NCBI GenBank assembly: GCA_018647945.1
Contig: JABGSE010000005.1
Coordinates: 1,491-65,490 of the forward strand
DNA from: Flavobacteriales bacterium
GTDB taxonomy: Bacteria > Bacteroidota > Bacteroidia > Flavobacteriales > BACL11
Direction of reading: 5' to 3'
Length of the DNA stretch: 64,000 bases
Positions 2,069-37,896 of the stretch are shown one piece after another (the first letter of the stretch is position 1; every line of letters starts with the position of its first letter). A model generated the notes under the pieces. The model did not search any database. It worked only from the letters and a program-made list of their open reading frames with translations, and was not told where the DNA came from. A program made the position numbers and the translations under genes.

Positions 2069-2890
2069 ATGAGGAGAGATACTCTAAAAAAAATGGATAC
2101 AGAATTGAAAGATGTAGTACACTACACTCTTGATATTCATGGTGAAACTCATAAAATGAACGATTATATTGGGAAGCAAATAAAAATAGAGTGGAGTGGT
2201 GTAGTTATTTGTAGTTGCGGGAAAAAAATGGAAAAATTCTATCGTTCCGGATTTTGCTACCCATGTTATTGGGACTCCCCAATGGCCTCTCAAAGTATTT
2301 TTAAACCCGAACTTTGTACGGCACATTTAGGAATTGAAGAAAGAGATTTGGAGTGGGAAATAGAATTTCAGTTAGCTCCACATTATGTTTATTTGGCAAA
2401 TTCTAGCGGAATAAAAGTAGGAATAACAAGGGGAAGCCAAGGAGTAATAAGGTGGATGGACCAAGGAGCAAGTCAAGCAATATTACTTGCAGAAGTTCCA
2501 AACAGAAGATTTTCTGGAGATATTGAAGTTTCCTTAAAACAATTTGTAGACGATAAAACTAATTGGAGAAAGATGCTTTCCGGAACACCAGAATCTGTAG
2601 ATTTAGTACAATTAAAAGAAGAGCTTTCCCAACATGTACCAGAAGAATTGAAACAATATATTTTACCAAATAATACAGTAACCGATATAAAGTATCCTGT
2701 AACAAAATACCCTGCAAAAATAAATAGCACAAAACTTGATAAAACTCCAATAATAAAAGGAGAACTTTTAGGAATAAAGGCTCAGTATTTATTATTAGAT
2801 GGAGATAGAGTGTTTAACATCCGTTCTCATGAAGGATATATTGCTAATTTTTCCGTTCCCAAGATAGCAAATCAAACTTCTCTATTCTAA
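2069..2890 (+). CDS. DUF2797-like protein with a Cys-cluster (putative zinc ribbon)
   Basis: 273-aa ORF divergent from the GH3 gene across a 39-bp gap. It carries a CSCG..x12..CYPCY cysteine cluster and the ..YLANSSGIKVGITR.. motif I associate with DUF2797. Confidence 0.7.
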   Translation: MRRDTLKKMDTELKDVVHYTLDIHGETHKMNDYIGKQIKIEWSGVVICSCGKKMEKFYRSGFCYPCYWDSPMASQSIFKPELCTAHLGIEERDLEWEIEFQLAPHYVYLANSSGIKVGITRGSQGVIRWMDQGASQAILLAEVPNRRFSGDIEVSLKQFVDDKTNWRKMLSGTPESVDLVQLKEELSQHVPEELKQYILPNNTVTDIKYPVTKYPAKINSTKLDKTPIIKGELLGIKAQYLLLDGDRVFNIRSHEGYIANFSVPKIANQTSLF

Positions 2891-4617
2891 TGTACTTCCA
2901 TAATGAAGGGAATACGTGCCTGGATTTTATCTTTTGAATTTAGAAACTCTAACTGATTCATTGTTTTTTCTGAAATACCCAGAAACTCAGGTAATACAAT
3001 ATTTTGTTTTGCAGAAAAACTTTTAATAAATTCCTCTAACATGTCTGTTTTCTTTGGAAGTGTAATAATTCTGTAATCCTCTAATTCTGCTAACTCAGCA
3101 GCGCTTACAATTGCAGCTTCCAATCCTCCTAGTTCATCAATAAGTCCGATAGAAAGAGCGTCTACTCCACTCCAAATTCTACCCTGTCCTATTTCATCAA
3201 CTTGTTGCTTTGTAATTCCTCTCCCTTCCGAAACATGAGTGATAAATGTTTCATAAATATCTTCTACTGAATTCTGAATGACACTAACCTCTTCATCACT
3301 TAATCTTCTGTATCCCATACCTATATCAGAATGTTTATGAGTATTTACCGTTTCAATATAAATACCTAATTTCTCATTCAAAAACTTTTTGTTATTCGGA
3401 ACTATTCCAAATACACCAATAGATCCTGTAAGAGTACTATTATTTGCAAAAATCTTATCGGCATTACAAGCAATATAATAACCTCCACTTGCTGCATAGT
3501 CACCCATAGAAACTACAATCTTTTTCTTCTGTTTTGCCAAGTTTATCTCCCTCCAAATGATTTCTGAAGCTAAAGCACTTCCTCCTGGGGAATTTACTCT
3601 TAAAACTATCGCTTTTACATTCTCGTCTTCAGATGCTTCTCTAATTGCTTCTACAGTAGTTTCGGAACCAATAGTATTATAACTTCCTTTCCCAGTATTA
3701 ATAGCTCCTGTTGCATAAATAATAGCGATTTTATTATTGCTAACAGAAGTTTTAGGGTTCTTGACTTTCATATAATCTGTTAGAGTGATTTCATTGTCCG
3801 ATAAATCTTCTAATACTGACAAAAATTCATCTTCATAAAAAATCTCATCAATAATTTTTCTATCTAAGCATTTTATTGATGAACTCAAATCCATATTATT
3901 TATCATTATATGAATTTCTTCAGAAGAAATTCCTTCTCTTGCAGTTGCAATACCACCAATCATATAATCAGAAAGAGAATTTACGAATTTCTCCAATTGT
4001 TCTCTATTTTCATTACTCATTTGATTGTACATAAATGGTTCTACAGCTCCTTTAAATTTTCCATGTCGGATAATTTGAGCTTCAATACCTAGTTTGTCCA
4101 TCAAACCTTTATAAAACATAACTCCAATACTCAATCCATTTAACTCAATGATTCCCTCAGGGTTTAATGCTATTTTGTCTGAAACAGATGCTAAATAATA
4201 AGCAGCCTGATTATAACTATCTGCATAAGAATAAATAAATTTTCCATTTTCTTTAAACTCTAATAACTTATTTCTGATTTCTTCAATCTGAGAAAAACCA
4301 GCATTCACTGATGAAAAATTCAGATAGATTCCTTTTATCTTATCATCATTTTTTGCTTTTTCAATATTATCTAAAATATCTTTAAACTCTACACTTTCTT
4401 CCTGTGAAAAATCCATAATATTTATAGCATCAAATGGATTCCCTGAAGTTCGATCTAAAATCTGATCGTTAAATTCAATCTTCAAAACTGAATTATCTTT
4501 TACAATAATTACCTGTTCTGCTTTCGGAATAAGTATTGCGACTAATATTAAAAATAAAACTACTAACAGAATTAAAGAAAGTAGTCTGGAAAATGTGCTT
4601 TTTAGGAAGTTTTTCAT
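2887..4617 (-). CDS. sppA: signal peptide peptidase SppA, 67K type
   Basis: 576 aa with an N-terminal TM anchor and two ClpP/crotonase-like halves. The second half has ..VLRVNSPGGSALASE.. and ..VSMGDYAASGGYYIA.., typical of SppA. Confidence 0.9.
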   Translation of the reverse strand: MKNFLKSTFSRLLSLILLVVLFLILVAILIPKAEQVIIVKDNSVLKIEFNDQILDRTSGNPFDAINIMDFSQEESVEFKDILDNIEKAKNDDKIKGIYLNFSSVNAGFSQIEEIRNKLLEFKENGKFIYSYADSYNQAAYYLASVSDKIALNPEGIIELNGLSIGVMFYKGLMDKLGIEAQIIRHGKFKGAVEPFMYNQMSNENREQLEKFVNSLSDYMIGGIATAREGISSEEIHIMINNMDLSSSIKCLDRKIIDEIFYEDEFLSVLEDLSDNEITLTDYMKVKNPKTSVSNNKIAIIYATGAINTGKGSYNTIGSETTVEAIREASEDENVKAIVLRVNSPGGSALASEIIWREINLAKQKKKIVVSMGDYAASGGYYIACNADKIFANNSTLTGSIGVFGIVPNNKKFLNEKLGIYIETVNTHKHSDIGMGYRRLSDEEVSVIQNSVEDIYETFITHVSEGRGITKQQVDEIGQGRIWSGVDALSIGLIDELGGLEAAIVSAAELAELEDYRIITLPKKTDMLEEFIKSFSAKQNIVLPEFLGISEKTMNQLEFLNSKDKIQARIPFIMEVH

Positions 4618-4696
4618 AATTAAAATTTAAGAGCATAAAATTACAAAAAATAATCCTATCATTTGTTTGCAATTCCTATATTTGAATTTAATTTTT

Positions 4697-5182
4697 ATGA
4701 ATATAATTTACATACAATTAGGGAGTAATATGGGAAATAGAAAATCCTATATTGAAAAAAGTATGCAACAAATTGAACAAGAAATTGGAAATATTATTTG
4801 CAGTTCTAAAATATACGAAAGTAGCCCCTGGGGAGTGAGTATTCAGAATCATTTTTTGAATAGTGTAATAAAGATAGAGAGCGAACTTTCCTCCTCCATT
4901 TTATTAAAAAAATTACAAGAAATAGAAAACAATTTAGGAAGAGCGAGGAAAGAAAAGTGGGGAGAAAGAAGTATCGATTTGGATATTTTATTTTACAATT
5001 CAGAAATAATAAATACAGAAAATTTAAAAGTTCCACACCCTTACATTCAGGATCGTAAATTTGTTTTAGTTCCACTTTCTGAAATTGATACAGATTATAA
5101 TCATCCTGTTTTACATAAAAATATTTCCTCACTATTAAAAGAATGTACTGATACTGAAATAGTTTATGAATATGCAATTTAA
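4697..5182 (+). CDS. folK: 2-amino-4-hydroxy-6-hydroxymethyldihydropteridine diphosphokinase
   Basis: HPPK motifs are present: IYIQLGSNMGNR, ..YESSPWG.., ..GERSIDLDILFY.., ..LKVPHPYIQDRKFVLVPL... I placed the start at the internal ATG (MNIIYIQLGSN) rather than the ORF-track start at 4667. Confidence 0.9.
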   Translation: MNIIYIQLGSNMGNRKSYIEKSMQQIEQEIGNIICSSKIYESSPWGVSIQNHFLNSVIKIESELSSSILLKKLQEIENNLGRARKEKWGERSIDLDILFYNSEIINTENLKVPHPYIQDRKFVLVPLSEIDTDYNHPVLHKNISSLLKECTDTEIVYEYAI

Positions 5183-5810
5183 TTTTATAGTAATAGAAGG
5201 AAATATTGGAAGTGGGAAAACCAGCCTCTCCAAAAAAATTGCAGCAGATTTGAATGGAAAATTAATTTTAGAAGAATTTGCCGACAATCCATTTTTACCA
5301 AAATTTTACAAAGATGCAGAACAAAATGCCTTTCCGTTAGAATTGTTTTTTATGGCGGAAAGATTTCAGCAATTGAGCAGCGAAAGTATGAAAAGTGATT
5401 TGTTTTCAGAATTTAGTATTGCAGATTATTCTTTTTTCAAATCGAAATTATTTTCACAAAACAACCTAAAGGAAGATGAATTAAATCTGTTTAACAGACT
5501 TTACTCTATCATGTTCACTTCCATAAAAAACCCAAATTTATTAATTTATCTTCATTCAGAAGTAAGCCGATTGCAAGAAAATATAAAAAAGAGAGGAAGA
5601 GATTACGAACAAAACATAAAAGATGAATACCTGAAAAATATTGAAAATAAATATTTTGATTATCTGAAAAAACAAACTGATTTTCAAGTATTAATGTTAG
5701 ATGTTTCGAAAGTAAATTTTATGAAAGATGAAAAGATTTACAATCAAATTATGAACGAAATAGAAAATTTTGAAAAAGATGTAAGAATAAAAAATCTTGT
5801 ATTAGGATAA
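5166..5810 (+). CDS. deoxynucleoside kinase (second paralog in the window)
   Basis: 214 aa with FIVIEGNIGSGKTSL P-loop, ..EEFADNPFLPKFY.. and ..ELFFMAERFQQ.. motifs of the dNK family. It overlaps the folK stop by 17 nt. Confidence 0.85.
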   Translation: MNMQFNFIVIEGNIGSGKTSLSKKIAADLNGKLILEEFADNPFLPKFYKDAEQNAFPLELFFMAERFQQLSSESMKSDLFSEFSIADYSFFKSKLFSQNNLKEDELNLFNRLYSIMFTSIKNPNLLIYLHSEVSRLQENIKKRGRDYEQNIKDEYLKNIENKYFDYLKKQTDFQVLMLDVSKVNFMKDEKIYNQIMNEIENFEKDVRIKNLVLG

Positions 5811-6701
5811 CCAACTACTCAAATCTTTATCAATTAATTTTTCTAAATTCTTAATTTCCTCATTGTAAAATCTACTAGTTAGTTCTCTTCTTAAATCAGA
5901 ATTTAGTTTTTCTGTTTTCGTATAAACCGATTTGAAAAGTAATTTTACCACAAAAGTTGGAAGATAGTCTGAAATTGCAAATTTTGGCATCAAATTATAA
6001 TACCTCATCTTTTTCAAAATATATCCCATCACCCCTTTTGGAGTTCCTGAAACATTTGACTTTTTGGATGTATCTACCTCAATATTTTCGTCTACATTCA
6101 AAAATTTAAAAATATCTTTCAGAGTTTCGTTCGGATTTTTCACTACATCTTCAAACAAATATACTTTTATATTTTCTTTTGGGAAAATATTATAATACCG
6201 TTTTAACTGAACCGAATAATATCCCTTTTCTATGTAATGATACAAAGGACTCCAATTATCTTCTATTCTTTGGTTTTCTATTTCAATAGCCTGTTCAAAG
6301 GAATTTAGATTTTCTCTATCGGCTCTTTTGGTATGCAAATAATTAGAATATGCTCTTTCTACAGGTTGTCGTAAAATGGCAATAATTTTCACATCCGGAA
6401 GATGCTCTTTTATCAACTGAGGAGCGTTTTCATTATAGATATAAGCAGGAGAAGCTTCCCCAATTGCAGATTCGTTTTCAACATCTGAAAATAAAGAAAA
6501 ATACTCCTCTAAAGTTGTGATTTTATTTCCTTTTCTGCCAAGTAATTTATAATCTTTATTCTGATTAAAATTATTAAAGAACATAGGTTCTTTCACCTTA
6601 GTCATAAAAATATCAGGATGTTGCTTTAGGTAGGTATCTAAAGAAGTTGTTGCCGCTTTCATGGCACCAATTACAATAAAATTCACTTTCTTTTCTACCA
6701 T
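5802..6701 (-). CDS. sulfotransferase domain protein
   Basis: 299 aa with a 5'-PSB-like loop (IGAMKAATTSL) and a 3'-PB-like motif (ILRQPVERAYSNYLH), both characteristic of PAPS-dependent sulfotransferases. Confidence 0.8.
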   Translation of the reverse strand: MVEKKVNFIVIGAMKAATTSLDTYLKQHPDIFMTKVKEPMFFNNFNQNKDYKLLGRKGNKITTLEEYFSLFSDVENESAIGEASPAYIYNENAPQLIKEHLPDVKIIAILRQPVERAYSNYLHTKRADRENLNSFEQAIEIENQRIEDNWSPLYHYIEKGYYSVQLKRYYNIFPKENIKVYLFEDVVKNPNETLKDIFKFLNVDENIEVDTSKKSNVSGTPKGVMGYILKKMRYYNLMPKFAISDYLPTFVVKLLFKSVYTKTEKLNSDLRRELTSRFYNEEIKNLEKLIDKDLSSWLS

Positions 6702-6715
6702 TTATTTTTATACAA

Positions 6716-6741
6716 AAGAACCCCAAATAAATGGGGTTCTT
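6716..6741 (-). terminator. rho-independent terminator downstream of the 6763-8472 gene
   Basis: Perfect 9-bp stem aagaacccc/ggggttctt with an 8-nt loop. On the minus strand it is followed by a TTTTGT run. Confidence 0.6.
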
Positions 6742-6762
6742 AAAGTAATTTCAATTTAATTT

Positions 6763-8472
6763 TTATTTTGTAAGAGAAATAAATTTCTCATTATTTCTGT
6801 AGTTCACAAACTCTAAATCTTTCAGAGCCTCTACTTTATACACTTCAGAATTCTGAATTGCTTTTTCTAAATTTGTAAATAATATAGTTTCGTTTCCTAA
6901 TCTTGCTCCAGCAATTGCATTTAAGTAATAACAAGCATCCGTTTCTTCATTACAAGTAGAATTATTATTTCCGTTTAAGATAGATACAAGTGCAGCATTA
7001 TAAGAGTTACCTCTTAAAATCCCAGTAGCAGATCTGTAATTTCCTTGTCTGACATCTAAAATTGCTTGGTTAGTAGAGTTTGTATTTGCTTTATCAAACA
7101 ACTTTTGAGCTTTATTTAATTCTCCATTCCAAGAAGCAATAATTCCTAAATTAGTAAGAACTGAAGACTCATTAGCACCTCCATTTTCTTTTGCTTTATT
7201 TAAGTATATCATTGCATTGTCATCATCATTTTTTGAAAGATAAATACACGCAATATTATTATATGCTCTCCAATCGTTATGTAAGCTAACAACAGAATTT
7301 AAAATAGTTAGCTTATTAGAAGAATTTTCTTCTAAAGTTGCGGAATATAATAATTCTTCAACCGACAATTCAGAAAGGTTTGTAGTGGAAAATAAAACAA
7401 TTTCTTCTCTCGTCTTTTTTGGATGATAAGATTTAATTGTAATTTCTGCTTTTCTCAAAAATGGTAAAATATTTTTATCTACCGCATCATACACCTCAGC
7501 CATATCTCTAATTGATTGTTCTTTTTCTTCTGCAGTTTTATTAGATTTTACAATTTTATTAATGATTTTTTTGTCCTTAATGTTAGAACTTCCTACCAAT
7601 TTGTAAAAACCATTCCAATCCTCTCCAATAGATGAAATCTGATATAAATCAGTATTGTCGGATCCATTAACTTTTAATTTATTCAGTAAATACTTTGCGT
7701 ATTTTAAAGTGCTTTTATTTCTTTTTCCACTAATATCATCATTTACACTTACCGAACCTTCTGGAGAAGCGTACGAAACAATTTCAAACGATTTGGTTAC
7801 ATATCCATTTTTAACAAATTCTTGTAATCTTTTCACATCATCATCAGATTTTTCTGAAGTTCGGATTTTAGATTGGTTAACCAAAAAGTATATTGTTGCA
7901 TCTTCGGAAAGAATCGTTTCCATTTCATATCCATGATTTTCAATTGCAATAATTTCATCATTTGCTACTCTTTCGGAAGTTGTTATAACTCCATTTGCTA
8001 TGATAACAGGACCTAATACCTTATTATCAGAGTTGTTTGTAGTGGTTTCTTTTAAAGTTGCTGTAGCTCTTAATTCCAAAGTTGATACCATCATATCATC
8101 TGAATATTCTATTTTGTCAGAATAGGAAAATCCACCTCCGGTTTCATAAAATATTGTTGACTCTCCTCCTGAAGCTTCTTCACCTTGAATTGTAATAGAT
8201 TTAAATGATGTTTCTTTTCCTTTTTCATCAATTAATACTGGTGTAATTTCTACAGTAGCCATCTTATTGAAATACTTTTCTGGAAATGTAGCGTCTAACT
8301 CCAAATTCACATTTCCTCCGTGAACTTCTAATGTTTTTGGATCTATATTATATCTAACATTATCATACTGATTTACCATTTTGTTTAATCCGCAACTACT
8401 AAGGATTAAAGCAAGAATTACTAATTTTGCAATGCTCATAATTTTATTTGATTTTTTAATGTGATTTAACAT
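6763..8472 (-). CDS. lipoprotein with central ASPEG/OmpA-like motif and C-terminal TPR-like repeats (function unknown)
   Basis: 569 aa with a lipobox (LILSSCG). The central SYASPEGSVSVNDDISGKR resembles the Bacteroidota ASPEG variant of the OmpA-like NxxLSxxR motif. The C-terminal third looks TPR-like (..AYNNIACIYLSKNDDDNAMIYLNKAKE..). An alternative start lies at 8439. Confidence 0.55.
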   Translation of the reverse strand: MLNHIKKSNKIMSIAKLVILALILSSCGLNKMVNQYDNVRYNIDPKTLEVHGGNVNLELDATFPEKYFNKMATVEITPVLIDEKGKETSFKSITIQGEEASGGESTIFYETGGGFSYSDKIEYSDDMMVSTLELRATATLKETTTNNSDNKVLGPVIIANGVITTSERVANDEIIAIENHGYEMETILSEDATIYFLVNQSKIRTSEKSDDDVKRLQEFVKNGYVTKSFEIVSYASPEGSVSVNDDISGKRNKSTLKYAKYLLNKLKVNGSDNTDLYQISSIGEDWNGFYKLVGSSNIKDKKIINKIVKSNKTAEEKEQSIRDMAEVYDAVDKNILPFLRKAEITIKSYHPKKTREEIVLFSTTNLSELSVEELLYSATLEENSSNKLTILNSVVSLHNDWRAYNNIACIYLSKNDDDNAMIYLNKAKENGGANESSVLTNLGIIASWNGELNKAQKLFDKANTNSTNQAILDVRQGNYRSATGILRGNSYNAALVSILNGNNNSTCNEETDACYYLNAIAGARLGNETILFTNLEKAIQNSEVYKVEALKDLEFVNYRNNEKFISLTK

Positions 8473-12559: not shown

Positions 12560-15500
12560 TTATCTAATTATAAATAAATTCCCAAAATCTTGGTGTTTCC
12601 AACCTTCAAAATCTTGGTAATAAATCTCGTAAATATAAGTTGCCATTAAAAGTGGGGTACCTGTTTCTTGGTAGTTTCCATCCCAACCATTGTTACAATC
12701 CAAATCGTGAATATTGGTTGTAGAATAGACTATATTCGAAAATCTGTCGTACACATTAAATAGAAAAGTTGCTTCTCTTATTCCGTTATAAGAAATACAA
12801 AATTTATCATTTATTTGATCGTTATCTGGAGTGAAAGAATTCGGAATATAAATCCAATATTCATTTGTAATTATAACATTTCTAAAGGTTGTATCCTTAC
12901 ATCCAAAATCATCTTCTATTATTAGTGAAACAGTATAACTTCCTGCAGAGTCCTTAAAATAATGATATGGATTTTGAGAAAAATCAGCGATTGTATTATC
13001 TCCAAAATTCCAATTCCAATTTACAATATTTCCTTCAGAATCATCAACAAAATTACTTTCAGAACTTAAAATAGTCATTGTGTCAGGATTAGCATGAAAA
13101 GCAGAAATAGGAGCTTCTAAAACATTAATAAAAGCTTGCCCACTAATTCCTCCTACTTCATTTGCATCCGAAAAATTAATAAGTGTATATTCTCCCTCAT
13201 TTTTACTGCTAATAACATAAGGATTTAGCAAAGTTGTTATTGAAGGATGAGGAATTCCATTGTGCTTATATGTAAAAGTAAATGGAGCCACTCCACTAAA
13301 AGAGACGCTCACCTCAGCCATATCTTTTCCATTATCACAAATAGTATCATTTCCAGAGATAAACGCTTCAATTGTAGGAAGTTCATAAATATGAAGAACT
13401 ACTGTATCATGAAAGTTTACATAAAATGAATCTGTAGGATTTGTATTGAAAGGCATCATAATTACAGAATCTGTTTCCCAATAGTCAAACCCCCAAAGTG
13501 GATCAATCTGAGGGACAACCGTAACAGTATCTCCTATTGTATAATTTACTGAAGTTGGAAAAACACTCATATTAACCCCATTTATATCTATTGAAGTTGT
13601 AGTTCCTGCAGGATCTATTTTATACACGATATCTCTTGTTGGCGTTGGAGGGATAAAATTTGCTATTACAGTTACATCACCTTGCAATTCAAATGCTAAG
13701 GTATCTAAAATAGGGTCGTATAAGTAAACACCTGCTGGTAACACCTCCCAATACTGAAAAGTACCACTTTTCACTTCAAATGGAAGAACCACTCCTCCAA
13801 ATCTGCTATAAACTTGCGGGATATTAGTTTCATTAATTATATTATTATCACTCATTTCCACCTCACCAATTCCAATAATTTCTACTGTCACATCATATGG
13901 TCCTGATAAATCTGGATAACATGGGATAAAACCATTGTTCATAATACTGCACCTAGCAAGTATAAAGTCTCTCATATCCTGAACATTGGATTGCCATGTA
14001 GCGTAATTCCCTCCCCAAGTTGCAATTTGTCGTGGCATTTCAGGGTCAATAACATCAATCATACTATCTAGTATATTTATCATATTATCACAAGATAAGT
14101 CTGAAGTTGCTAAATCCTGCCATCTATTTATATAATCATCAAAGAACTCTTCATTTGTAAGCATCTCATTCCAAATAGGAACATGCCCTTGGCCTCCGGG
14201 ATCACTCAAACTACTCGGATCGCAAGGATCTGCATTTACAGACATAGTAGGGACTCCAGTATAATTCGTTCCATGATCAAAGGTATTATCCATATCCCAT
14301 AAAGTATATCTCCATTTCTTTTTATCTCCATTAGGATCCATTCCTCTCCACCATCCTGTATTCCAGTTTAACCAATCTGCACAAACTACATAAGAATTCA
14401 ATAAAAAATAGTCAATTAAGCTTCCTGTATTATATTGAGATTTTGCAGTATTATAATTTGCTTGTATGTTCATAGGGTTTGTCGCAACATAAGCAACAAA
14501 ATTATCCCAATCTGGTTGCGCATTTGGAGCTCCGTATTCCGTCCATGTTCCACCCCAAGTTTTTAAATATTGTAAATTATTTTTATCCTGATCATAGTAA
14601 TAATCGGTAAAATCATGATCATCTGTTTTTTCTCTCATTTCATAAACCCCCCAATATGATCCATCTAAATAAACAATACAGGAAGTAGTTGATCGTTCAT
14701 CTAATCGCAAGTCTGCAAGTTGAGATAAATGATTGACATAAGCATCTCTAATGTGAGCCCCTGATCCTCCATAAGAAAATGGATAATTATCATTCGCGGC
14801 AGCTTTAACAATAACTCTTTGAAATTTTTCTCTATCTTTCGTCATAAAAAGTTTATCCTGAAGTGCGTGATTATATCCAAATTGATCTCTCATTACATAA
14901 TCAAACCCTCTCTGGTCGTACGCCCAAGAATCATTTCCATGTTTATTATACTCTCCCATTCCTTTATCTATGATATTACCATCTTTATCAAACCACTCTA
15001 TAGTGCCCTCTGGTTCTAATGATGAAGATCCCCATCCTCCATCTAATAAATCCAAAACTTCATCCCCAGAAATTGACAGAATTGGAATAGTGTGAGTGTC
15101 ATCAACAAAGTAAGTACAGTATTCAATGAAAGAGGGAAGAATATTAGGATTCGAATTATAAGCAACCGCTTTTAAAACTGTGGTTTGAGTAAAAGTTATA
15201 GGAGTAGTATATTGAGTAGATGTATTGTCAGGTCTTCTGCCGTCAGTAGTATAATATATGGTTACGTTAGGATCAGCTGATGTTATTATTACTTGTGCAG
15301 ATCCGCTATAATATCCTGAAGGGATAGAAAAAATAGGAGTAGAAGAGTATCGTTCAAATGCCCCTGTATTTGCAATAGTAGGAGTTGCATTATCAAATAC
15401 AGACCAAATAGAACTTCCATTTGTTTCTCTACCTGTTGAGTGAGATTTAATATTTGGACGGACAGTTATAGAATCTAACAAAACTTGAGAAGCGTCCGAA

Positions 15501-15853
15501 AGAATGAACACCTCATTTCCTTTTGTCTGTGTTATTTTAAAATTTGTATGGGCAAAACCCCCGCTTACTTCATCTCTACCAGAACAAAAAACAATTCCAA
15601 CATCATTTGCGGGAATAATAAATGAAGACGGCACTTGCCATTTTGTTGGGTTGATTACTTTATCAGATAAATAATATCCATTAATATCAATTGGTGCGGC
15701 AGAACTATTGTAAATCTCTAACCAATCCCGATAGTCTCCATAATTATCCTGATAACTATCATAATTTGCAGCCGAATATTCATTTATTACCAATTGAGCA
15801 TTTGAATGGTTTATGAAAATAAAAGCAAATATTAATATTATAAATTTTTTCAT
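12560..15853 (-). CDS. secreted CotH-family protein with N-terminal lamin-tail domain, FN3-associated/chitobiase-C-like repeat, PKD domain and T9SS type B C-terminal sorting domain
   Basis: 1097 aa with a signal peptide. LTD-like LVINEYSAAN..DWLEIYN.. is at the N-terminus. TIYYTTDGRRPDNTSTQYTTPITF is the Chb/HEX-C-like motif. The central region looks CotH-like (..VYLDGSYWGVYEMREKTD..). The PKD domain is WNWNFGDNT..GSYTVSLIIEDDFGCKDT. The C-terminal YIPNSFTPDNDQINDKF marks the gliding-motility C-terminal (type B) domain. Confidence 0.8.
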   Translation of the reverse strand: MKKFIILIFAFIFINHSNAQLVINEYSAANYDSYQDNYGDYRDWLEIYNSSAAPIDINGYYLSDKVINPTKWQVPSSFIIPANDVGIVFCSGRDEVSGGFAHTNFKITQTKGNEVFILSDASQVLLDSITVRPNIKSHSTGRETNGSSIWSVFDNATPTIANTGAFERYSSTPIFSIPSGYYSGSAQVIITSADPNVTIYYTTDGRRPDNTSTQYTTPITFTQTTVLKAVAYNSNPNILPSFIEYCTYFVDDTHTIPILSISGDEVLDLLDGGWGSSSLEPEGTIEWFDKDGNIIDKGMGEYNKHGNDSWAYDQRGFDYVMRDQFGYNHALQDKLFMTKDREKFQRVIVKAAANDNYPFSYGGSGAHIRDAYVNHLSQLADLRLDERSTTSCIVYLDGSYWGVYEMREKTDDHDFTDYYYDQDKNNLQYLKTWGGTWTEYGAPNAQPDWDNFVAYVATNPMNIQANYNTAKSQYNTGSLIDYFLLNSYVVCADWLNWNTGWWRGMDPNGDKKKWRYTLWDMDNTFDHGTNYTGVPTMSVNADPCDPSSLSDPGGQGHVPIWNEMLTNEEFFDDYINRWQDLATSDLSCDNMINILDSMIDVIDPEMPRQIATWGGNYATWQSNVQDMRDFILARCSIMNNGFIPCYPDLSGPYDVTVEIIGIGEVEMSDNNIINETNIPQVYSRFGGVVLPFEVKSGTFQYWEVLPAGVYLYDPILDTLAFELQGDVTVIANFIPPTPTRDIVYKIDPAGTTTSIDINGVNMSVFPTSVNYTIGDTVTVVPQIDPLWGFDYWETDSVIMMPFNTNPTDSFYVNFHDTVVLHIYELPTIEAFISGNDTICDNGKDMAEVSVSFSGVAPFTFTYKHNGIPHPSITTLLNPYVISSKNEGEYTLINFSDANEVGGISGQAFINVLEAPISAFHANPDTMTILSSESNFVDDSEGNIVNWNWNFGDNTIADFSQNPYHYFKDSAGSYTVSLIIEDDFGCKDTTFRNVIITNEYWIYIPNSFTPDNDQINDKFCISYNGIREATFLFNVYDRFSNIVYSTTNIHDLDCNNGWDGNYQETGTPLLMATYIYEIYYQDFEGWKHQDFGNLFIIR

Positions 15854-15965
15854 AACTGCAAATATAACAATTTAACTAATATTATGAAAATATTTCATAA
15901 TCATTTTATCCGTTCATCAATGAATATAAAGATAATTATTAATGTTATTTATTCCTCTAATTTTA

Positions 15966-15973
15966 TAATTTTG
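15966..15973 (+). promoter_or_regulatory. Bacteroidota-type -7 promoter box (TAATTTTG) for the decarboxylase operon
   Basis: TAnnTTTG match 24 nt upstream of ATG 15997. Confidence 0.4.
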
Positions 15974-15996
15974 TAGAAAATTTCAAAAACCAAAAA

Positions 15997-17367
15997 ATGG
16001 CAAAAAAAATAGTTGACGATTTAAAAATTTTTAATTCCTTAGTTGATGATTTACTAAAAGAGGAGAAGGAAAAAGGAATTTCTACAAGAATTGAGGCTGA
16101 TAAACTTTTTGACCAACTTGATATATCCTTATCAGAAAATGCGATTGAAGATGAAGACTTTACAACTATTCTTAGGTCACTAATTTTAAACACTCCAAAA
16201 ACTTCTGGAAAATTATTTTTTAACCAATTGTATGGAGGAAGAGAAAGTAAATCTGTTTTAGGAGATTTGTTGGCCGTAATATTAAATAACAGCATGGCTA
16301 CTTACAAAATTGCTGGACCTATGGTTGTTGTGGAAAAAGAAATAATCAATAAAGTATGCGAGTTAATTTCTTATCCGAAAAGCAGTGGAGGAACATTCCC
16401 AACCGGAGGAAGTATGAGTAATTTTATGGCTCTTATTATCGCAAGAGACAAAAAAGATAATGAGATAAAAAATAAAGGAAATTGTTCAAACTTAATTTGT
16501 TATAGCTCGGTGAACTCTCATTATTCAATTGGGAAAAATGCATCATTCGCAGGAATTGGCAGAGATAATGTTCGATATATTTCAGCAAATGAAAAGGGTG
16601 AAATAATTTCATCTGAATTAGAAAATGCAATTATAAACGATATCGAAAATGGGAATACTCCATTTTTTGTAAATGCTACTGTAGGAACAACCGTTATGGG
16701 AGCAATTGATCCAATAGATGAAATAAGTAAAATCTGTAAAAAGCATAATATTTGGTTTCATATTGATGGATCATATTCAGGAACTGTTATTTTTTCCAAA
16801 AAATACAAACATTTAATAAAAGGGGTAGAAAATTCTGACTCATTTTGTTTTAACGCCCATAAAACTTTAGGAACTCCTCTTTCTACATCTATTTTTGTTT
16901 TAAGAGATGAAAAATATTTACACAATTCTTTCAATAATGAAGCTGATTATTTGTACCAAACAGACAACTCAAATTTTAATTTGGGGCAAACTTCTTTTGA
17001 ATGTGGAAGAAGAAACAATGCTTTAAAATTCTGGACACTTTGGAAATCGGTTGGAACAAACGGAATTGCAGAAATGGTAGAACACAACTATTATTTAGCA
17101 AATGTTGCAAGAGAGTACATCAGAAATAATGATAATTACAAATTATATAGTTTTGACGATAGTTTGTCAATTTGTTTTAATTATAAAAATTTAGATCCAG
17201 AAGAGATATGTATAAAACTTTACCACGCTAATAAACTTATGGTTGGTTTTGGGATGCATAAAACTGATAAGTTCATCAGGTTAGTAAGTATAAACAGAGA
17301 AAACACAAAAGAAGATATTCTTAATTTCTTTAAAATTTTAGAAGAATTTACAAATCAAAATGACTAA
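15997..17367 (+). CDS. group II pyridoxal-phosphate-dependent amino-acid decarboxylase (substrate unknown)
   Basis: 456 aa with ..GGSMSNFMALIIAR.., ..WFHIDGSYSG.. and the PLP-lysine motif ..FNAHKTLGTPL.., typical of GAD/CSAD/DABA/aspartate decarboxylase-type enzymes. Confidence 0.85.
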   Translation: MAKKIVDDLKIFNSLVDDLLKEEKEKGISTRIEADKLFDQLDISLSENAIEDEDFTTILRSLILNTPKTSGKLFFNQLYGGRESKSVLGDLLAVILNNSMATYKIAGPMVVVEKEIINKVCELISYPKSSGGTFPTGGSMSNFMALIIARDKKDNEIKNKGNCSNLICYSSVNSHYSIGKNASFAGIGRDNVRYISANEKGEIISSELENAIINDIENGNTPFFVNATVGTTVMGAIDPIDEISKICKKHNIWFHIDGSYSGTVIFSKKYKHLIKGVENSDSFCFNAHKTLGTPLSTSIFVLRDEKYLHNSFNNEADYLYQTDNSNFNLGQTSFECGRRNNALKFWTLWKSVGTNGIAEMVEHNYYLANVAREYIRNNDNYKLYSFDDSLSICFNYKNLDPEEICIKLYHANKLMVGFGMHKTDKFIRLVSINRENTKEDILNFFKILEEFTNQND

Positions 17368-18022
17368 TAAGGATTTCATTATTATACTTGCATGGCCAGA
17401 AGGAATGGTAACAGCTTCTGGAGCTTGGTACGATAAAATAATTTCTACTAATGGGAAATATAGAGTCGGACATTCGGCACTTATTTTGGTAGATTATTCA
17501 ACTGGAAAGTTACATTATTTTGATTTTGGAAGATACCACACATCAAACGGATACGGAAGAATTAGAGATACTGAAACGGACCCTGATGTTGAAATAAAAC
17601 AACTTGCAATTATTGAAAATAATGAAATTAAAAATATTGAAAATCTTTTAATTGAAGTGGCAAATAACACATCTTATCATGGAGATGGCCGTCTTTACTC
17701 ATCAGTAGTTTCAAATATAAATTTTAAATCTGCATTTAATTATGCGAAAAAATGGCAAGAAAAAGATGAGATTCCATATGGTCCTTTTGTGTGTAACGGA
17801 ACCAATTGCTCCCGATTTGTAGCGAAAATTAGCAGAAAAGCAGAGCCTTCTTTTCTGAAAACATTAAGATTAAAATTTCCTTTCTGTATTTCCCCTTCTC
17901 CAAAAAGAAATGTAAGCATTGGAAACTCAGAATATTTTATTGTTGAAGGAATAGAGTGTAAAAAAATAAACAAAAGTAAACTGAGAGGATATTTCAGTGG
18001 AATTGAAAATGCAAATGTATAA
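17360..18022 (+). CDS. hypothetical protein; putative permuted papain-fold (LRAT/PPPDE-like) thiol enzyme
   Basis: 220 aa. Its ATG overlaps the decarboxylase stop by 8 nt. His38 (VGHSALILV) and His52 (KLHYFDFG) are followed by Cys150 in NCSRFV (codon 17807-17809). This order and context resemble the NCEHF/NCNHF motif of permuted NlpC/P60-type enzymes. Confidence 0.5.
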   Translation: MTNKDFIIILAWPEGMVTASGAWYDKIISTNGKYRVGHSALILVDYSTGKLHYFDFGRYHTSNGYGRIRDTETDPDVEIKQLAIIENNEIKNIENLLIEVANNTSYHGDGRLYSSVVSNINFKSAFNYAKKWQEKDEIPYGPFVCNGTNCSRFVAKISRKAEPSFLKTLRLKFPFCISPSPKRNVSIGNSEYFIVEGIECKKINKSKLRGYFSGIENANV

Positions 18023-18290
18023 ACCAAATAATATACCAACCGATTCTCAATTTTTAAAAGGAATAGGAGCGTCTGCATGGTTTCATATTTCTGAAGAAGA
18101 AAATAATTTCAGAATTAAAAGATTTTCTGAAGAAGGGAAACTAGAATGCTCCAGGATTTTTAGTATAAACAACACTGATTTTAACATTCATTCACCTTTC
18201 CAATTCACTTATACCTCTCATTGTAAAAAGTGTACTATCATACAAAATAACAATACATATATTTTTAAAACCAACGATTATGAATATTAA
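18009..18290 (+). CDS. hypothetical small protein
   Basis: ORF overlapping the upstream stop, with candidate starts GTG 17997, ATG 18009 and ATG 18015. I recognise no family. It contains three Cys (..LECSR.., ..HCKKC..). Confidence 0.55.
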   Translation: MQMYKPNNIPTDSQFLKGIGASAWFHISEEENNFRIKRFSEEGKLECSRIFSINNTDFNIHSPFQFTYTSHCKKCTIIQNNNTYIFKTNDYEY

Positions 18291-18510
18291 AATTTATGGG
18301 GCAGATTGGTGTCCAGACTGTGTAAATGCTAAAAATTTCCTAAATTCAAAAGGAATAGAATTTGAATACATTGTAATTACTGATAATGATGAAGCAATTG
18401 CTTTTTTAGAAAAAGTAAATAACGGAAAACGAATAATTCCTACTTTATTAATTGATGGGGAAACACATACAAATCCAGGAATTAATGGATTAATGAATAT
18501 ATTTAAATAA
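18280..18510 (+). CDS. glutaredoxin-like / thioredoxin-fold protein (CPDC active site)
   Basis: 76 aa. IKIYGADWCPDCVNAKNFL..GKRIIPTLLIDG.. is the classic Grx/NrdH-like layout. It overlaps the upstream stop by 11 nt. Confidence 0.8.
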   Translation: MNIKIYGADWCPDCVNAKNFLNSKGIEFEYIVITDNDEAIAFLEKVNNGKRIIPTLLIDGETHTNPGINGLMNIFK

Positions 18511-18546
18511 TAACACTATTTTTGCAATCAATATCATACCAAATAA

Positions 18547-20442
18547 ATGAGTGACGAATTAAAACACGAATGTGGAGTAGCAATGTTAAGATTGCTAAAA
18601 CCCTTAGAGTTTTACCAAAAGAAATATGGCACATCCATTTACGGATTAAATAAAATGTACCTTTTGATGGAAAAACAACACAATAGAGGACAAGATGGTG
18701 TTGGATTGGCAAATATAAAGTTAGATGTTTCCCCTGGAAAAAGATACATTAGTAGAAAAAGATCAGTAGCGACAAATCCTATTCAGGATGTGTTTAAACA
18801 AGTAAACAAAAGGTTTCTGGAGTTGGAGGAAAATGAACCAGAAAAACTAAAAGATTCTCAATGGATGAAAGAAAACATGCCATTTACAGGAGAATTATTT
18901 TTAGGACATTTACGATATGGTACTTTTGGTGGAAATACAATAGAACAATGTCATCCCTTTTTACGTCAGAGTAATTGGAAAACTAGAAATGTAGTTTTAG
19001 CAGGTAACTTTAACATGACAAATGTAGATGAACTGTTTCAGCAGTTAGTTGACCTGGGTCAGCATCCAAAACAAAAAGCAGATACGGTAACTATTTTAGA
19101 AAAGATTGGTCATTTTTTAGATGAAGCAAATGATGAAATCTACTACAAGCGCAAAGATGATTTCAGCAAAAAAGAGATTACAAAAGTAATTGAAGAAGAA
19201 TTAGACTTACAAGATATTTTAACACAATCCGCTAAATATTGGGATGGAGGGTATGTGATGTGTGGAATAATCGGACATGGTGATGCTTTTGCGCTTAGAG
19301 ACCCAAATGCTATTAGACCAGCTTATTATTACAAGGATGATGAAATTGTAGTTGTAGCATCTGAAAGACCTGTAATACAAACCTCTTTTAATGTAGATAT
19401 TGAAGATGTAAAAGAGATAAAAAGAGGACATGCACTTATCATAAAGAAAGATGGTACAGTAGAAGAAAAACAAGTACGTGAACCTTTAGAAAGAAAAGCA
19501 TGCTCATTTGAACGTATTTACTTTTCAAGAGGAAATGATAAAGATATTTATAACGAAAGATTAGAGCTTGGGAAACGTATTTTCCCTAAGGTATTAGAAT
19601 CGATTAATAATGATGTAAGAAATACAGTATTCTCTTATATTCCAAATACTGCTGAGGTATCTTATTTTGGACTATTGAAAGGCTGTCATGCATATCTAAA
19701 TGAGGTGAAAACCAAAAAGATTCAGGAATTAGGAGACAATCCTTGTCATGATGAAATTGCCAAAATAATGGAGATTTCTCCAAGAGCAGAAAAAATTGCA
19801 ATTAAGGATGCTAAACTAAGAACCTTTATTACATCAGACGATAGTAGAGATGATTTGGTTGCTCATGTTTATGATGTTACTTATGGTACTGTCAAACCTA
19901 ATGATAATCTGGTAATGATAGACGATAGCATTGTAAGAGGTACAACTTTAAAACAATCTATTATCAGAATACTAGACCGATTAAATCCTAAGAAAATTGT
20001 GGTAGTTTCTTCAGCCCCACAAATTAGATATCCTGATTGTTATGGAATTGACATGGCTAAAATGGGTGATTTTATTGCTTTTAATGCAGCTGTTGATTTA
20101 CTAAAAGACACAAATCAGGAACACATACTTACTGAAGCTTATCTTAAATGTAAATCTCAATTAGATTTACCAAAAGAAGAAATGGTAAATTATGTTCAAG
20201 AAATTTACAGGCCATTTTCAGCAGAAGAGATTTCAGGTAAAATTAGTGAATTACTAACTCCAAAAGGAATAAAAGCAGAAGTGAAAATTATTTACCAAAG
20301 CATCTCTGATTTACACGAATCTTGCCCCAACCATTTAGGTGATTGGTATTTTACTGGGGATTACCCTACTCCAGGAGGGATAAAGGTAGTAAACAAAGCC
20401 TTTATCAATTATATGGATGGAAAAAACGAAAGAGCTTATTAG
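18547..20442 (+). CDS. purF: amidophosphoribosyltransferase (long Bacteroidota form)
   Basis: 631 aa. It has the N-terminal nucleophile context MSDELKHECGVAM, an Ntn glutaminase domain, and a PRTase motif (..LVMIDDSIVRGTTL..). Confidence 0.93.
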   Translation: MSDELKHECGVAMLRLLKPLEFYQKKYGTSIYGLNKMYLLMEKQHNRGQDGVGLANIKLDVSPGKRYISRKRSVATNPIQDVFKQVNKRFLELEENEPEKLKDSQWMKENMPFTGELFLGHLRYGTFGGNTIEQCHPFLRQSNWKTRNVVLAGNFNMTNVDELFQQLVDLGQHPKQKADTVTILEKIGHFLDEANDEIYYKRKDDFSKKEITKVIEEELDLQDILTQSAKYWDGGYVMCGIIGHGDAFALRDPNAIRPAYYYKDDEIVVVASERPVIQTSFNVDIEDVKEIKRGHALIIKKDGTVEEKQVREPLERKACSFERIYFSRGNDKDIYNERLELGKRIFPKVLESINNDVRNTVFSYIPNTAEVSYFGLLKGCHAYLNEVKTKKIQELGDNPCHDEIAKIMEISPRAEKIAIKDAKLRTFITSDDSRDDLVAHVYDVTYGTVKPNDNLVMIDDSIVRGTTLKQSIIRILDRLNPKKIVVVSSAPQIRYPDCYGIDMAKMGDFIAFNAAVDLLKDTNQEHILTEAYLKCKSQLDLPKEEMVNYVQEIYRPFSAEEISGKISELLTPKGIKAEVKIIYQSISDLHESCPNHLGDWYFTGDYPTPGGIKVVNKAFINYMDGKNERAY

Positions 20443-20447
20443 TTTCT

Positions 20448-21362
20448 CTATTCTACAAATTTTAGTAGTTGTTTGCTTTCAATAGGAAATTCTGAAAATA
20501 TTTCTGAAACATATTTTTTGTAAAAATTAATATCATCCGGACTATGGTTATAAGATGGTTTAATATTATAAATTTTTATCACATCATCACACCACTGATC
20601 GTCAAACGTAAGAGACATATATTCGCAAAATTTCTCTAACACATTTTTGTCAAAAGTGTGTTCATAAAAATGAAAAAAGTGAACAGTCCTTTTCTTTTGA
20701 TTCTGAAAATAAATTAGAAACTCATCCAGGATTGCCTTAATAATATCTTGAAGTGTGGACTGATCCGAAATCTGATTAAAAATTAATGCCAAATTTGTTT
20801 TTTGGTTGGATACAGCGCAATCCAAGGGATTTCTAATTGGTAATATGTATCTGATTTTATCATTGTGTTTTATTAACTCCAAAACATCTACTTCTTTTTC
20901 TAATAAATGATTTTTCAGATATAAACCTTCCTTCCAAAACAAACATCTAATATCTTCCTTTACTAAGGAATTTTTATATCTATTTTGAAACAAATATTTT
21001 ACTTCCGATTTATCAAATGCATGAGAAAGAGTAATACTTCCTCCATACCTTCCTCTTTGTCCAATTCCGGATAACAAAATAGCATATTGCATAAATTGAT
21101 TGAAACTTTTTTCTGAATACTCTCCAAAAAAATCAACCTTTTTATGTGGAAATATCCTGTCTTTTGCGTGATTTAGAACTTGGCAATTTGGATGTAAAGC
21201 TGCCACAGAAGCGGTAAGAGATGTTAAGTTTCTGTACGGGCCCGCTACCAAACAAAGTGTTTCCACTGAAGATATATCAATTTTAGAAGATTGCTTTATT
21301 AGTCTTTCTTCTAAAATATATTGATATGTATCTTCTATTTTCTTTTGAATCCTACCCAACAT
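20448..21362 (-). CDS. hypothetical protein with sulfotransferase-fold motifs
   Basis: 304 aa. LVAGPYRNLTSLT is a degenerate 5'-PSB-like loop. ILPIRNPLDCAVSNQ closely matches the RNPxDxxVS 3'-PB motif of sulfotransferases. Confidence 0.45.
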   Translation of the reverse strand: MLGRIQKKIEDTYQYILEERLIKQSSKIDISSVETLCLVAGPYRNLTSLTASVAALHPNCQVLNHAKDRIFPHKKVDFFGEYSEKSFNQFMQYAILLSGIGQRGRYGGSITLSHAFDKSEVKYLFQNRYKNSLVKEDIRCLFWKEGLYLKNHLLEKEVDVLELIKHNDKIRYILPIRNPLDCAVSNQKTNLALIFNQISDQSTLQDIIKAILDEFLIYFQNQKKRTVHFFHFYEHTFDKNVLEKFCEYMSLTFDDQWCDDVIKIYNIKPSYNHSPDDINFYKKYVSEIFSEFPIESKQLLKFVE

Positions 21363-28623: not shown

Positions 28624-29754
28624 TTATAAATCTATTCTCGCTCCTATTGAATGCGAACCATTAAATGGTTGTGTAGCTCTATAAGAATAATCTAAACCAA
28701 AAGTAGATCCGTTACCCATTGGTAATTCTACTGTAAAACCAGCAGTTGGGCCTCTAAGTGCAGTTGTTCTGTAGGATTCTTTATCATTATCCTCTGCAAA
28801 TCCTTGAGAATATCTAATTCCATCTTCATATACATAACCAGTTCTGATCATAAAGTAATCTTTGTAAGAATATTCACAACCTAATCGGTATTGATCTTTT
28901 TGGAAAGAATTAGAAGTAAAAGTAGTCGCACCGGTTAACCTATTGTCTCTATTAATATTAACATCATAAGTTATTCCAATATTGAAAAGTGCTGGCAAAT
29001 CAAAGAATGAAGACCTTTGTTCAACAGTCATTTTAAAATCGTCCGCACTTCCAACTATTCCTCTAAAGGAAAGTCCATCACCATTAAACGACATCCTTGG
29101 TCCCCAGTTTTTAAGTGAAATACCAAATTTCAAATTATCCTCTGCTCCTGTAATATATTGTATTCCTGCGTCAAAAGCAAGACCATTAGCACTTACATCC
29201 GAAATTTGTTCGGATATCATTCTTATTGTCGCTCCTCCATAAATACTATTAGAAAAAATATGCGCATAAGACACTCCAATATTCATAAACTTTGGAGAGA
29301 ATGTTCCGATACCTCCATCTGGAAGTTCGACAGTAGTAATTTCAATATCACCAAAATCCAAGGACATTACTCCAAATCCTAATACTCCTGATTCTCCCAT
29401 TTTTTGAGAGAAACCAAAAGTACTAATTGTACTTACTGAATTATCCGAATCAAATAATTTGTTACCATACTGTAACCAAGAAGTTTGACTAAAAATTAAT
29501 TCTGTTTTCTCAGTAAATGCCAATCCAGCAACATTTGAATACTGACCTTCCAAACCTTCAACTCCAGCAACATTTGCACCAGCCCATCCAGAAGATCTGG
29601 CAAAAGGATTAATTAGTAATTCAGAAGCTCCTGCGGAACCCGCTCTAATAGCTTCTTCTTGAGAAAAACTCTCTTTAGCAGGGATTAATACAATTGCAGA
29701 TACTACTACAACTTTTATCCAATGAGTTATTTTTTTCATATTTAAAATTTTCAT
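28624..29754 (-). CDS. PorV/PorQ-family outer-membrane beta-barrel protein
   Basis: 376 aa with a signal peptide. The N-terminal block GSAGASELLINPFARSSGWAGANVAGVEGLEGQYSNVAGLAF matches my memory of the conserved PorV/PorQ opening motif. The rest shows alternating beta-strand periodicity. The start lies 10 nt after the upstream stop. Confidence 0.6.
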   Translation of the reverse strand: MKILNMKKITHWIKVVVVSAIVLIPAKESFSQEEAIRAGSAGASELLINPFARSSGWAGANVAGVEGLEGQYSNVAGLAFTEKTELIFSQTSWLQYGNKLFDSDNSVSTISTFGFSQKMGESGVLGFGVMSLDFGDIEITTVELPDGGIGTFSPKFMNIGVSYAHIFSNSIYGGATIRMISEQISDVSANGLAFDAGIQYITGAEDNLKFGISLKNWGPRMSFNGDGLSFRGIVGSADDFKMTVEQRSSFFDLPALFNIGITYDVNINRDNRLTGATTFTSNSFQKDQYRLGCEYSYKDYFMIRTGYVYEDGIRYSQGFAEDNDKESYRTTALRGPTAGFTVELPMGNGSTFGLDYSYRATQPFNGSHSIGARIDL

Positions 29755-37790: not shown

Positions 37791-37896
37791 AGGTATATAA
37801 ATGTTAGTGTGTTTATAATTCAAAGGCGGTAAAGGTAATAACTTTTATAAATCAGACAAACAGATTTCTTTTTTATTTTATTTGTAAAATTGCAAT

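Follow-up and report, generated by a model that had tools for sequence, protein, structure and literature searches.

What kind of enzyme is encoded by the 220-residue open reading frame (ORF) at 17360..18022 (+) of a Flavobacteriales genome fragment, and what could it be doing between the genes for an amino acid decarboxylase and a glutaredoxin? The fragment (hereafter, the window) comprises 64,000 nucleotides of contig JABGSE010000005.1 from assembly GCA_018647945.1, and a sequence-only reading had singled out the protein for an LRAT/PPPDE-like permuted catalytic signature, formed by H38, H52, and C150. The ORF, its length, and the three residues were all confirmed, with the codons read on the DNA. 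Based on sequence profiles and on the predicted structure, we assign the protein to a family of permuted papain-type (NlpC/P60) cysteine enzymes that is already catalogued as TseH-like/DUF6695. Since this family is present in both Pfam and NCBI, the catalytic signature is a classification and not a discovery; what is unusual here is the non-toxin metabolic context in combination with a conserved split, redox-linked architecture. As a whole, we consider it reasonably probable that the locus encodes a cytoplasmic split TseH-like cysteine enzyme in a metabolic/redox operon, with a co-substrate or product of the beta-amino-acid type, and not a type VI secretion system (T6SS) toxin. The readings as a toxin, an LRAT member, a PPPDE member, or a pseudogene are each contradicted by at least one of the features tested.

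The family assignment was obtained in several ways. In the Pfam search, residues 7-158 of the protein matched positions 1-158 of the 167 in PF25218, "T6SS effector TseH-like", with a score of 159.3 bits, the cut-off being 27 (E 1.1e-46), i.e., a TseH-like permuted NlpC/P60 cysteine hydrolase or acyltransferase domain. Even at E<=10 this was the only family retrieved, with no match to LRAT, PPPDE, or NLPC_P60. A phmmer search against the PDB retrieved the crystal structure of TseH (6V98, deposited as "cysteine hydrolase") with an E-value of 7.5e-5; in the alignment, GH38 pairs with a GH of TseH, D55 with a Glu at His+17, and NC150SRFV with NCMTFV. The profile of a set of diverse homologs (A2, see below) matched only TseH 6v98 among the PDB sequences. 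The AlphaFold2 model of the protein, built on an alignment of 33 close sequences, had a mean predicted local distance difference test (pLDDT) of 78 and a predicted template modeling score (pTM) of 0.82, and its sole Foldseek match at E<=0.001 was again 6V98 (E 2.3e-8, probability 1.00, TM 0.62/0.73). The likeness to LRAT and PPPDE proposed from the sequence thus stands at the level of the permuted papain fold, recovered through TseH, and falls at the level of membership, given that neither family was matched in Pfam at E<=10 and that Foldseek returned 6V98 and no LRAT or PLAAT chain.

The family also has a characterized bacterial member, Vibrio cholerae TseH (VCA0285), whose crystal structure has been solved and whose catalytic Cys has been mutated (PMC12994826, PMC11573676). 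TseH has the triad Glu81-His64-Cys172 (PMC11573676; preprint bioRxiv 10.1101/2024.05.31.596883) and displays a weak, Cys-dependent phospholipase activity (PMC12994826). The earlier remark that no characterized bacterial member was known from such an operon context therefore needs dividing: the context is indeed unusual and unlike a toxin setting, but a characterized member does exist. The two proteins have in common the Pfam family PF25218, the permuted order with an equivalent putative triad (Asp55/His38/Cys150 versus Glu81/His64/Cys172), the GRY and NCxxFV motifs, and a similar length. They differ in that identity is only about 19-25%, that R67 and D74, invariant in the relatives of the window protein, are absent from TseH, and that TseH has no counterpart, as judged from the alignments, of the DUF6695_C partner described below. 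Moreover, TseH is delivered by a T6SS and comes with an immunity gene, whereas the window protein is cytoplasmic by sequence and encoded in a metabolic operon.

Conservation was assessed on three homolog alignments: 33 close sequences (A1, 57-96% identity) and two diverse sets of 47 (A2) and 85 (A4) sequences, which reach down to about 22-27% identity. In total, 770 database proteins matched the protein at E<=1e-3, the closest 120 of which were all 204-229 residues long. No variation is seen within the close clade at H38, at D55, or anywhere in the NCSRFV motif. G37, H38, D55, G57, R58, Y59, R67, R69, D74, and C150 are invariant in both diverse sets, Y140 is invariant among the 47 and at least 90% conserved among the 85, and conservation in diverse homologs is at least 90% for N149, R152, F153, and V154. 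The order of His before Cys and the N-C-x-x-F context are thus real and not due to chance, and the His/Cys pair named from the sequence is under strong constraint. H52 fared differently, as Q, E, Y, F, L, C, N, and R all occur in its place in the 33 close sequences (C145 is likewise variable there). Because it varies even inside the close clade, H52 is not a catalytic residue, and the conserved third position is Asp55. Accordingly, the putative catalytic triad is Asp55-His38-Cys150: His38 (codon 17471..17473, +), the candidate general base, and Asp55 (17522..17524, +), located at His+17 as Glu81 is in TseH, are both invariant in A1, A2, and A4, and the candidate nucleophile Cys150 (17807-17809, +) lies in the N149-C150-S-R-F-V154 motif (17804..17821, +).

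These residues bear on the analogy to which the sequence-only reading came closest, namely, an LRAT/PLAAT-type acyltransferase or phospholipase acting on membrane phospholipids. LRAT/PLAAT proteins (HRASLS, PF04970) belong to the same permuted NlpC/P60 superfamily, have His before Cys and N-C-x-x-F at the start of a helix, and proceed through an acyl-Cys intermediate, which would be expected for the window protein as well. In addition, NCSRFV, with its invariant Cys following the His, pairs with NCEHFV of PLAAT3, and phospholipase activity has been shown for both TseH and Tox-Act1 (PMC12994826). However, no LRAT family was matched in Pfam at E<=10, and in an hhalign comparison of A2 with PLAAT3 (sequence checked against PDB 4FA0) only the NCxxFV helix was paired, without significance (E 0.056, probability about 1%). 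In Foldseek, neither the window model nor that of a fused homolog matched any LRAT or PLAAT chain. The second triad His of these enzymes, about 12 residues after the first and thus corresponding to H52, is not conserved, whereas D55 is, and the C-terminal membrane anchor is absent, the protein ending in ...YFSGIENANV. We therefore regard a lipid-directed enzyme of this type as unlikely. Tox-Act1 and DUF4105/Lnb, sister clades in the permuted NlpC/P60 tree, use a Cys-His-polar triad for acyl-thioester lipid chemistry (PMC12994826, PMC11573676). Neither has a detectable sequence match to the window protein, and they differ from it in being, respectively, a secreted toxin (Tox-Act1, a permuted NlpC/P60 phospholipase) and a membrane protein with a periplasmic domain (Lnb, the Bacteroides lipoprotein N-acyltransferase).

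A PPPDE/DeSI-type isopeptidase, which would take off a modifier resembling ubiquitin or SUMO, or some other group in peptide linkage, also has the permuted papain architecture with His before Cys in common with the window protein. For the model of a fused homolog, Foldseek gave a borderline similarity to human CLN5 (6r99; E 1e-2, probability 0.92, TM 0.24), which has a PPPDE-like fold. CLN5 itself is nonetheless reported to act as a lipid transacylase or depalmitoylase and not as a deubiquitinase, and the window protein's own model had no CLN5/PPPDE-type match. Furthermore, PPPDE (PF05903) was not found in Pfam at E<=10, the A2 profile matched nothing but 6v98 in the PDB, and no ubiquitin-like or E1/E2-like gene was present in any of the neighborhoods examined. 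An isopeptidase of this type is thus extremely unlikely.

The second unusual aspect of the locus is that the gene is split. Directly downstream, a DUF6695 C-terminal domain protein (DUF6695_C; PF20405, E 5e-29) of 93 residues is encoded at 18009..18290 (+), counted from the ATG at 18009, with the frame open from a GTG at 17997. This ORF is in a different frame from the upstream gene, overlapping its stop by 14 nucleotides and the start of the glutaredoxin gene by 11, and is translationally coupled to the TseH-like gene. In the family at large, a single chain is the rule: a search of 1.84 billion representative proteins resulted in 386 family representatives, mostly 300-365 residues long, and in most of the distant homologs the TseH-like and DUF6695_C domains are fused in one chain, named "DUF6695 family protein" by NCBI. 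Such Bacteroidota proteins, with PF25218 and PF20405 in one polypeptide, are direct homologs of the window protein (27-45% identity) and share its invariant residues and, often, its decarboxylase neighbor. The window version differs from them in being made of two genes, in the gain of a CxxC motif in the C-terminal domain, and in the glutaredoxin that follows; both domains are present in trans, on overlapping ORFs, throughout the clade.

Could the split be a truncated pseudogene, or an assembly frameshift in an ordinary DUF6695 gene of 300 residues? The length of most family members and the change of frame at a 14-nucleotide overlap would be compatible with this. A genome scan with A1 as a query, which returned only the close clade, provided 41 loci from species-level genomes, all of uncultured marine Flavobacteriales or Cryomorphaceae. 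The split with intact ORFs, i.e., with a separate adjacent DUF6695_C ORF, is found in 40 of these independent genomes, the 41st (L048) being a cut contig, as well as in many metagenome contigs. Both halves are conserved (52-69% identity for the TseH-like and 44-63% for the DUF6695_C part), the N-terminal ORF retains a clade-specific tail (Y211, F212, I215, and E216), and split versions also occur in other branches of the family. Finally, the junction varies among the clade genomes, with an overlap of 14 or 4 nucleotides or a gap of 2. Because the junctions differ between genomes, an assembly artifact is excluded, and with both halves conserved, the probability left to the pseudogene reading is practically negligible. 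The variable junction, together with the lack of a shared slippery site, led us to reject a programmed frameshift as the link between the two ORFs. Division of the gene into a catalytic subunit and a small beta-rich one has occurred repeatedly. On the opposite strand, a 112-residue ORF (17740-18078, -) lies wholly inside the TseH-like/DUF6695_C coding region and has most likely arisen by chance, the DNA being AT-rich.

As for the relationship between the two halves, the fused homolog P0123 (44% identical), which is found in the same decarboxylase-X-glutaredoxin context as in the window, was modeled with AlphaFold2. The model is confident as a whole (pLDDT 89.6, pTM 0.88) and shows an all-beta C-terminal domain and a disordered linker, implying that the two domains pack in a defined way. 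Based on that confidence, the TseH-like and DUF6695_C proteins of the window probably form a complex. For the DUF6695_C fold itself, Foldseek returned only non-significant matches, resembling lipocalins and fatty-acid-binding proteins.

A redox link is suggested by the gene that follows. A glutaredoxin-like protein of 76 residues (PF00462, E 9e-14) is encoded at 18280..18510 (+), with the active site W-C11-P-D-C14 at 18310-18321, and the DUF6695_C protein contains C72-K-K-C75 (18222..18233, +). All 47 DUF6695_C sequences of the marine clade have S[H/N]CxxC at this position, while most other family members have SHCxxV/I, i.e., only one Cys, with V or I in place of the second. CxxC and a downstream glutaredoxin were found together in 44 loci, CxxC alone in 8, neither in 65, and a glutaredoxin without CxxC in none, counts that lack phylogenetic independence, since one clade accounts for most of the 44 positive loci. 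The link appears specific to the marine clade, and the functional tie between CxxC and glutaredoxin is suggested by gene order and co-occurrence.

Upstream, a group II pyridoxal phosphate (PLP)-dependent decarboxylase (15997..17367, +; PF00282, E 2e-75) of the acidic-amino-acid (CSAD/GADL1/GAD) subgroup overlaps with its stop the start of the TseH-like gene by 8 nucleotides, so that decarboxylase, TseH-like, DUF6695_C, and glutaredoxin genes form a four-gene overlapping unit. Its best solved relatives are the cysteine sulfinic acid decarboxylase 6zek (E 5e-73), GADL1 (6enz), and GAD65/67 (down to 2e-66), and it falls below the NCBIfam cut-offs for diaminobutyrate (DABA) decarboxylase and PanP. 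At the three positions that we take to be the selectivity motif of Agnello 2013, the window decarboxylase has Y/S/A, GADL1 Y/S/Y, CSAD F/S/Y, and GAD65 S/N/F. The order in the clade is CotH(-) / decarboxylase, TseH-like, DUF6695_C, glutaredoxin, PurF-like(+) / S46 peptidase(-). The decarboxylase is found upstream of the TseH-like gene in 38 of the 41 clade loci; in six it is not immediately upstream, owing to an insertion of ~6 kb (L027, L029, and L031, where it spans about 2150 to 8000) or a gap of ~0.6-0.8 kb (L012, L037, and L039). The glutaredoxin gene is present in 36 of the 41, absent from four complete loci (L015, L038, L043, and L045) and off the cut contig in L048. A promoter and terminator scan of 15700-20700 gave counts equal to the shuffled expectation, with a sigma-70 model that is unsuited to Bacteroidota.

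The wider family was surveyed in 80 distant metagenome loci of the fused type (L052-L131), with neighbors clustered and the clusters confirmed by Pfam. DinB_2 was found in 33, TANGO2 in 31, and both in 26 of them, with further loci showing one of the two genes on cut contigs. In 19 of the 80, a PLP decarboxylase lies directly upstream of the fused gene, preceded in four of the 19 by a type I cysteine dioxygenase (CDO_I), and AhpC/TSA and rhodanese-thioredoxin proteins occur in 14 and 12 loci. The same-strand upstream partner is thus either DinB_2 with a TANGO2/NRDE-type N-terminal nucleophile protein, or else a PLP decarboxylase; outer neighbors common to both arrangements are YceI, AhpC/TSA, rhodanese-thioredoxin, and DUF4833, and the two types of loci interleave on a rough neighbor-joining tree. 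The bacterial TANGO2/NRDE-type protein (PF05742) starts with MCT and carries an SNRDE motif; in many Bacteroidota loci, its gene and that of DinB_2 directly precede the DUF6695-family gene on one strand (e.g., L061, 7001-7933 and the genes before it; L132, 6300-8026). The CDO homolog (PF05995, E 5e-7; L078, L086, L099, and L107) is two positions upstream of the family gene, and CDO plus a CSAD-like decarboxylase correspond to the two-step route from cysteine to hypotaurine, placed directly upstream of a DUF6695-family gene. Directly downstream of two distant DUF6695-family genes we found PanD, the pyruvoyl aspartate 1-decarboxylase (PF02261, with the GS self-cleavage site; L133, 8075-8464; L134, 8312-8677), which is a second, unrelated decarboxylase fold. 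Another locus has an Orn/DAP/Arg decarboxylase two genes off, and in the cultured Patiriisocius sp. Uisw_017 (CP159835, L132) TANGO2 is upstream of the family gene, while a PLP decarboxylase follows it at a distance of two genes, encoded on the opposite strand. With TANGO2 and a PLP decarboxylase near one gene, this last locus weakens a strict module swap, considered for DinB plus TANGO2 versus CDO plus decarboxylase, which we did not retain. A link between TANGO2, DinB, and this family in bacteria was not found in the literature. Human TANGO2 is reported as an acyl-CoA-binding protein (PMC11867700), and a frequent neighbor of this kind speaks for the lipid-directed LRAT/PLAAT type, against which the invariant Arg cluster and the decarboxylase neighbors point to a small anionic substrate.

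These neighborhoods also bear on whether the protein could be an antibacterial T6SS effector like TseH, i.e., an envelope-targeting hydrolase or phospholipase delivered to competitors, as the name of its Pfam family suggests. On either side the gene overlaps a metabolic neighbor, its synteny holds throughout 41 species, and the GC content of the window is uniform. Our ORF scan covered about half of the ORFs in the 64 kb, and among these no T6SS, PAAR, VgrG, Hcp, or immunity-like gene was found; the scanned ORFs are housekeeping (MutS, S46 peptidase, ABC permease, and TonB receptor), and RuvC and GreA were placed in the window by synteny with L001. The neighbors in the 80 distant loci are DinB, TANGO2, decarboxylases, and redox proteins, and no secretion system was present in the examined neighborhoods of relatives. 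Also, the 220-residue protein has no N-terminal signal sequence, its opening residues forming the first beta-strand of the fold in the AlphaFold2 model. We consider an effector very unlikely; a housekeeping enzyme of metabolism or redox is the most likely identity of the protein.

Taken together with the predicted triad, the protein is best read as a cytoplasmic, thioester-forming acyl hydrolase or transferase that would be tied to the product of the decarboxylase and to thiol redox. In the mechanism that we propose, His38, oriented by Asp55, would deprotonate Cys150, which would attack an ester or amide carbonyl to form an acyl-thioester; this would next undergo hydrolysis or transfer onto an amine, in the manner of LRAT/PLAAT, Lnb, Tox-Act1, and TseH. 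From the invariance of R58, R67, and R69, the substrate or the acceptor may be anionic. The separately encoded DUF6695_C protein would bind the catalytic subunit as a second subunit, and its clade-specific CxxC might be kept reduced, or switched, by the co-encoded glutaredoxin. Because two unrelated folds of acidic-amino-acid decarboxylases (the PLP-dependent CSAD/GADL1-like type and PanD) recur beside family members, the co-substrate or product would most likely be a beta-amino acid (of the beta-alanine, hypotaurine, or taurine type) or its amide, e.g., an N-acyl derivative.

Several points weigh against this assignment to a metabolic/redox operon. TseH, the one relative that has been characterized, is secreted as a toxin and has a weak phospholipase activity, and about a quarter of the family loci are without any recurrent neighbor. 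The synteny in the marine clade may partly reflect shared ancestry, e.g., the PurF-like gene is syntenic only there, and the same non-independence affects the CxxC/glutaredoxin counts. No CDO, TANGO2, DinB, or PanD gene was found in the window, and the substrate proposed therefore borrows from distant relatives. Moreover, the association of the subunits and the tie between glutaredoxin and CxxC are read from gene order and co-occurrence.

More speculatively, and as a possibility to which we assign a rather low probability, Bacteroidota DUF6695/TseH-like enzymes, the split version included, might represent an unrecognized acyl-transfer/amidase step around beta-amino-acid and cysteamine-type metabolites (beta-alanine, hypotaurine, taurine, and pantetheine/coenzyme A), with CSAD/GADL1-like or PanD decarboxylases, cysteine dioxygenase, the TANGO2 homolog, and the DinB-type metalloprotein as partners. 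This would give a concrete functional proposal for a family common in marine Flavobacteriales. The function of the human TANGO2 counterpart is disputed, and the family is now tied to bacterial TANGO2 homologs; if the proposal is true, the bacterial TANGO2-DUF6695 gene pair would be a tractable handle on the molecular function of TANGO2, and the TseH toxin would have been recruited from a housekeeping enzyme. While a recent paper describes the whole clade of TseH-like enzymes as conflict-associated, the Bacteroidota branch is instead found in conserved metabolic/redox neighborhoods, unlike the secreted toxin that is the family's only characterized member.

Other genes of the window are summarized in the following. 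The PurF-like protein downstream of the glutaredoxin gene (631 residues, 18547-20442, +) has a class II amidotransferase and a phosphoribosyltransferase domain, scores 122.6 bits against the NCBIfam purF cut-off of 350, and is probably the long bacteroidotal amidophosphoribosyltransferase. It was considered as a member of the operon and rejected, as it is syntenic only in the marine clade and, with 72-91% identity across it, far above the other genes, looks housekeeping-like. On the other side, and divergent from the operon, a protein with a CotH kinase domain (1097 residues, 12560-15853, -) carries lamin-tail, PKD, and type IX secretion system type B (CHU_C) sorting domains and keeps its position across the clade. 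A TonB-dependent receptor-like protein (1263 residues, 34032-37823, -) has CarboxypepD_reg, Plug, and barrel domains; it is directly followed downstream by an ORF of 1417 residues (29765-34018, -) with no Pfam match at E<=0.001, and this in turn by a 376-residue ORF without matches (28624-29754). There are two sulfotransferase-like genes, of which the one at 20448-21362 (-) is faint (E 0.03) and found beside the PurF-like gene in only one other clade locus (L039), and the one at 5802-6701 (-) is clear (PF13469/PF00685, E 1e-15). Lastly, a GH3-family protein of the acyl-acid amido synthetase type is encoded at 515-2029 (-), with all three GH3 domains matched.

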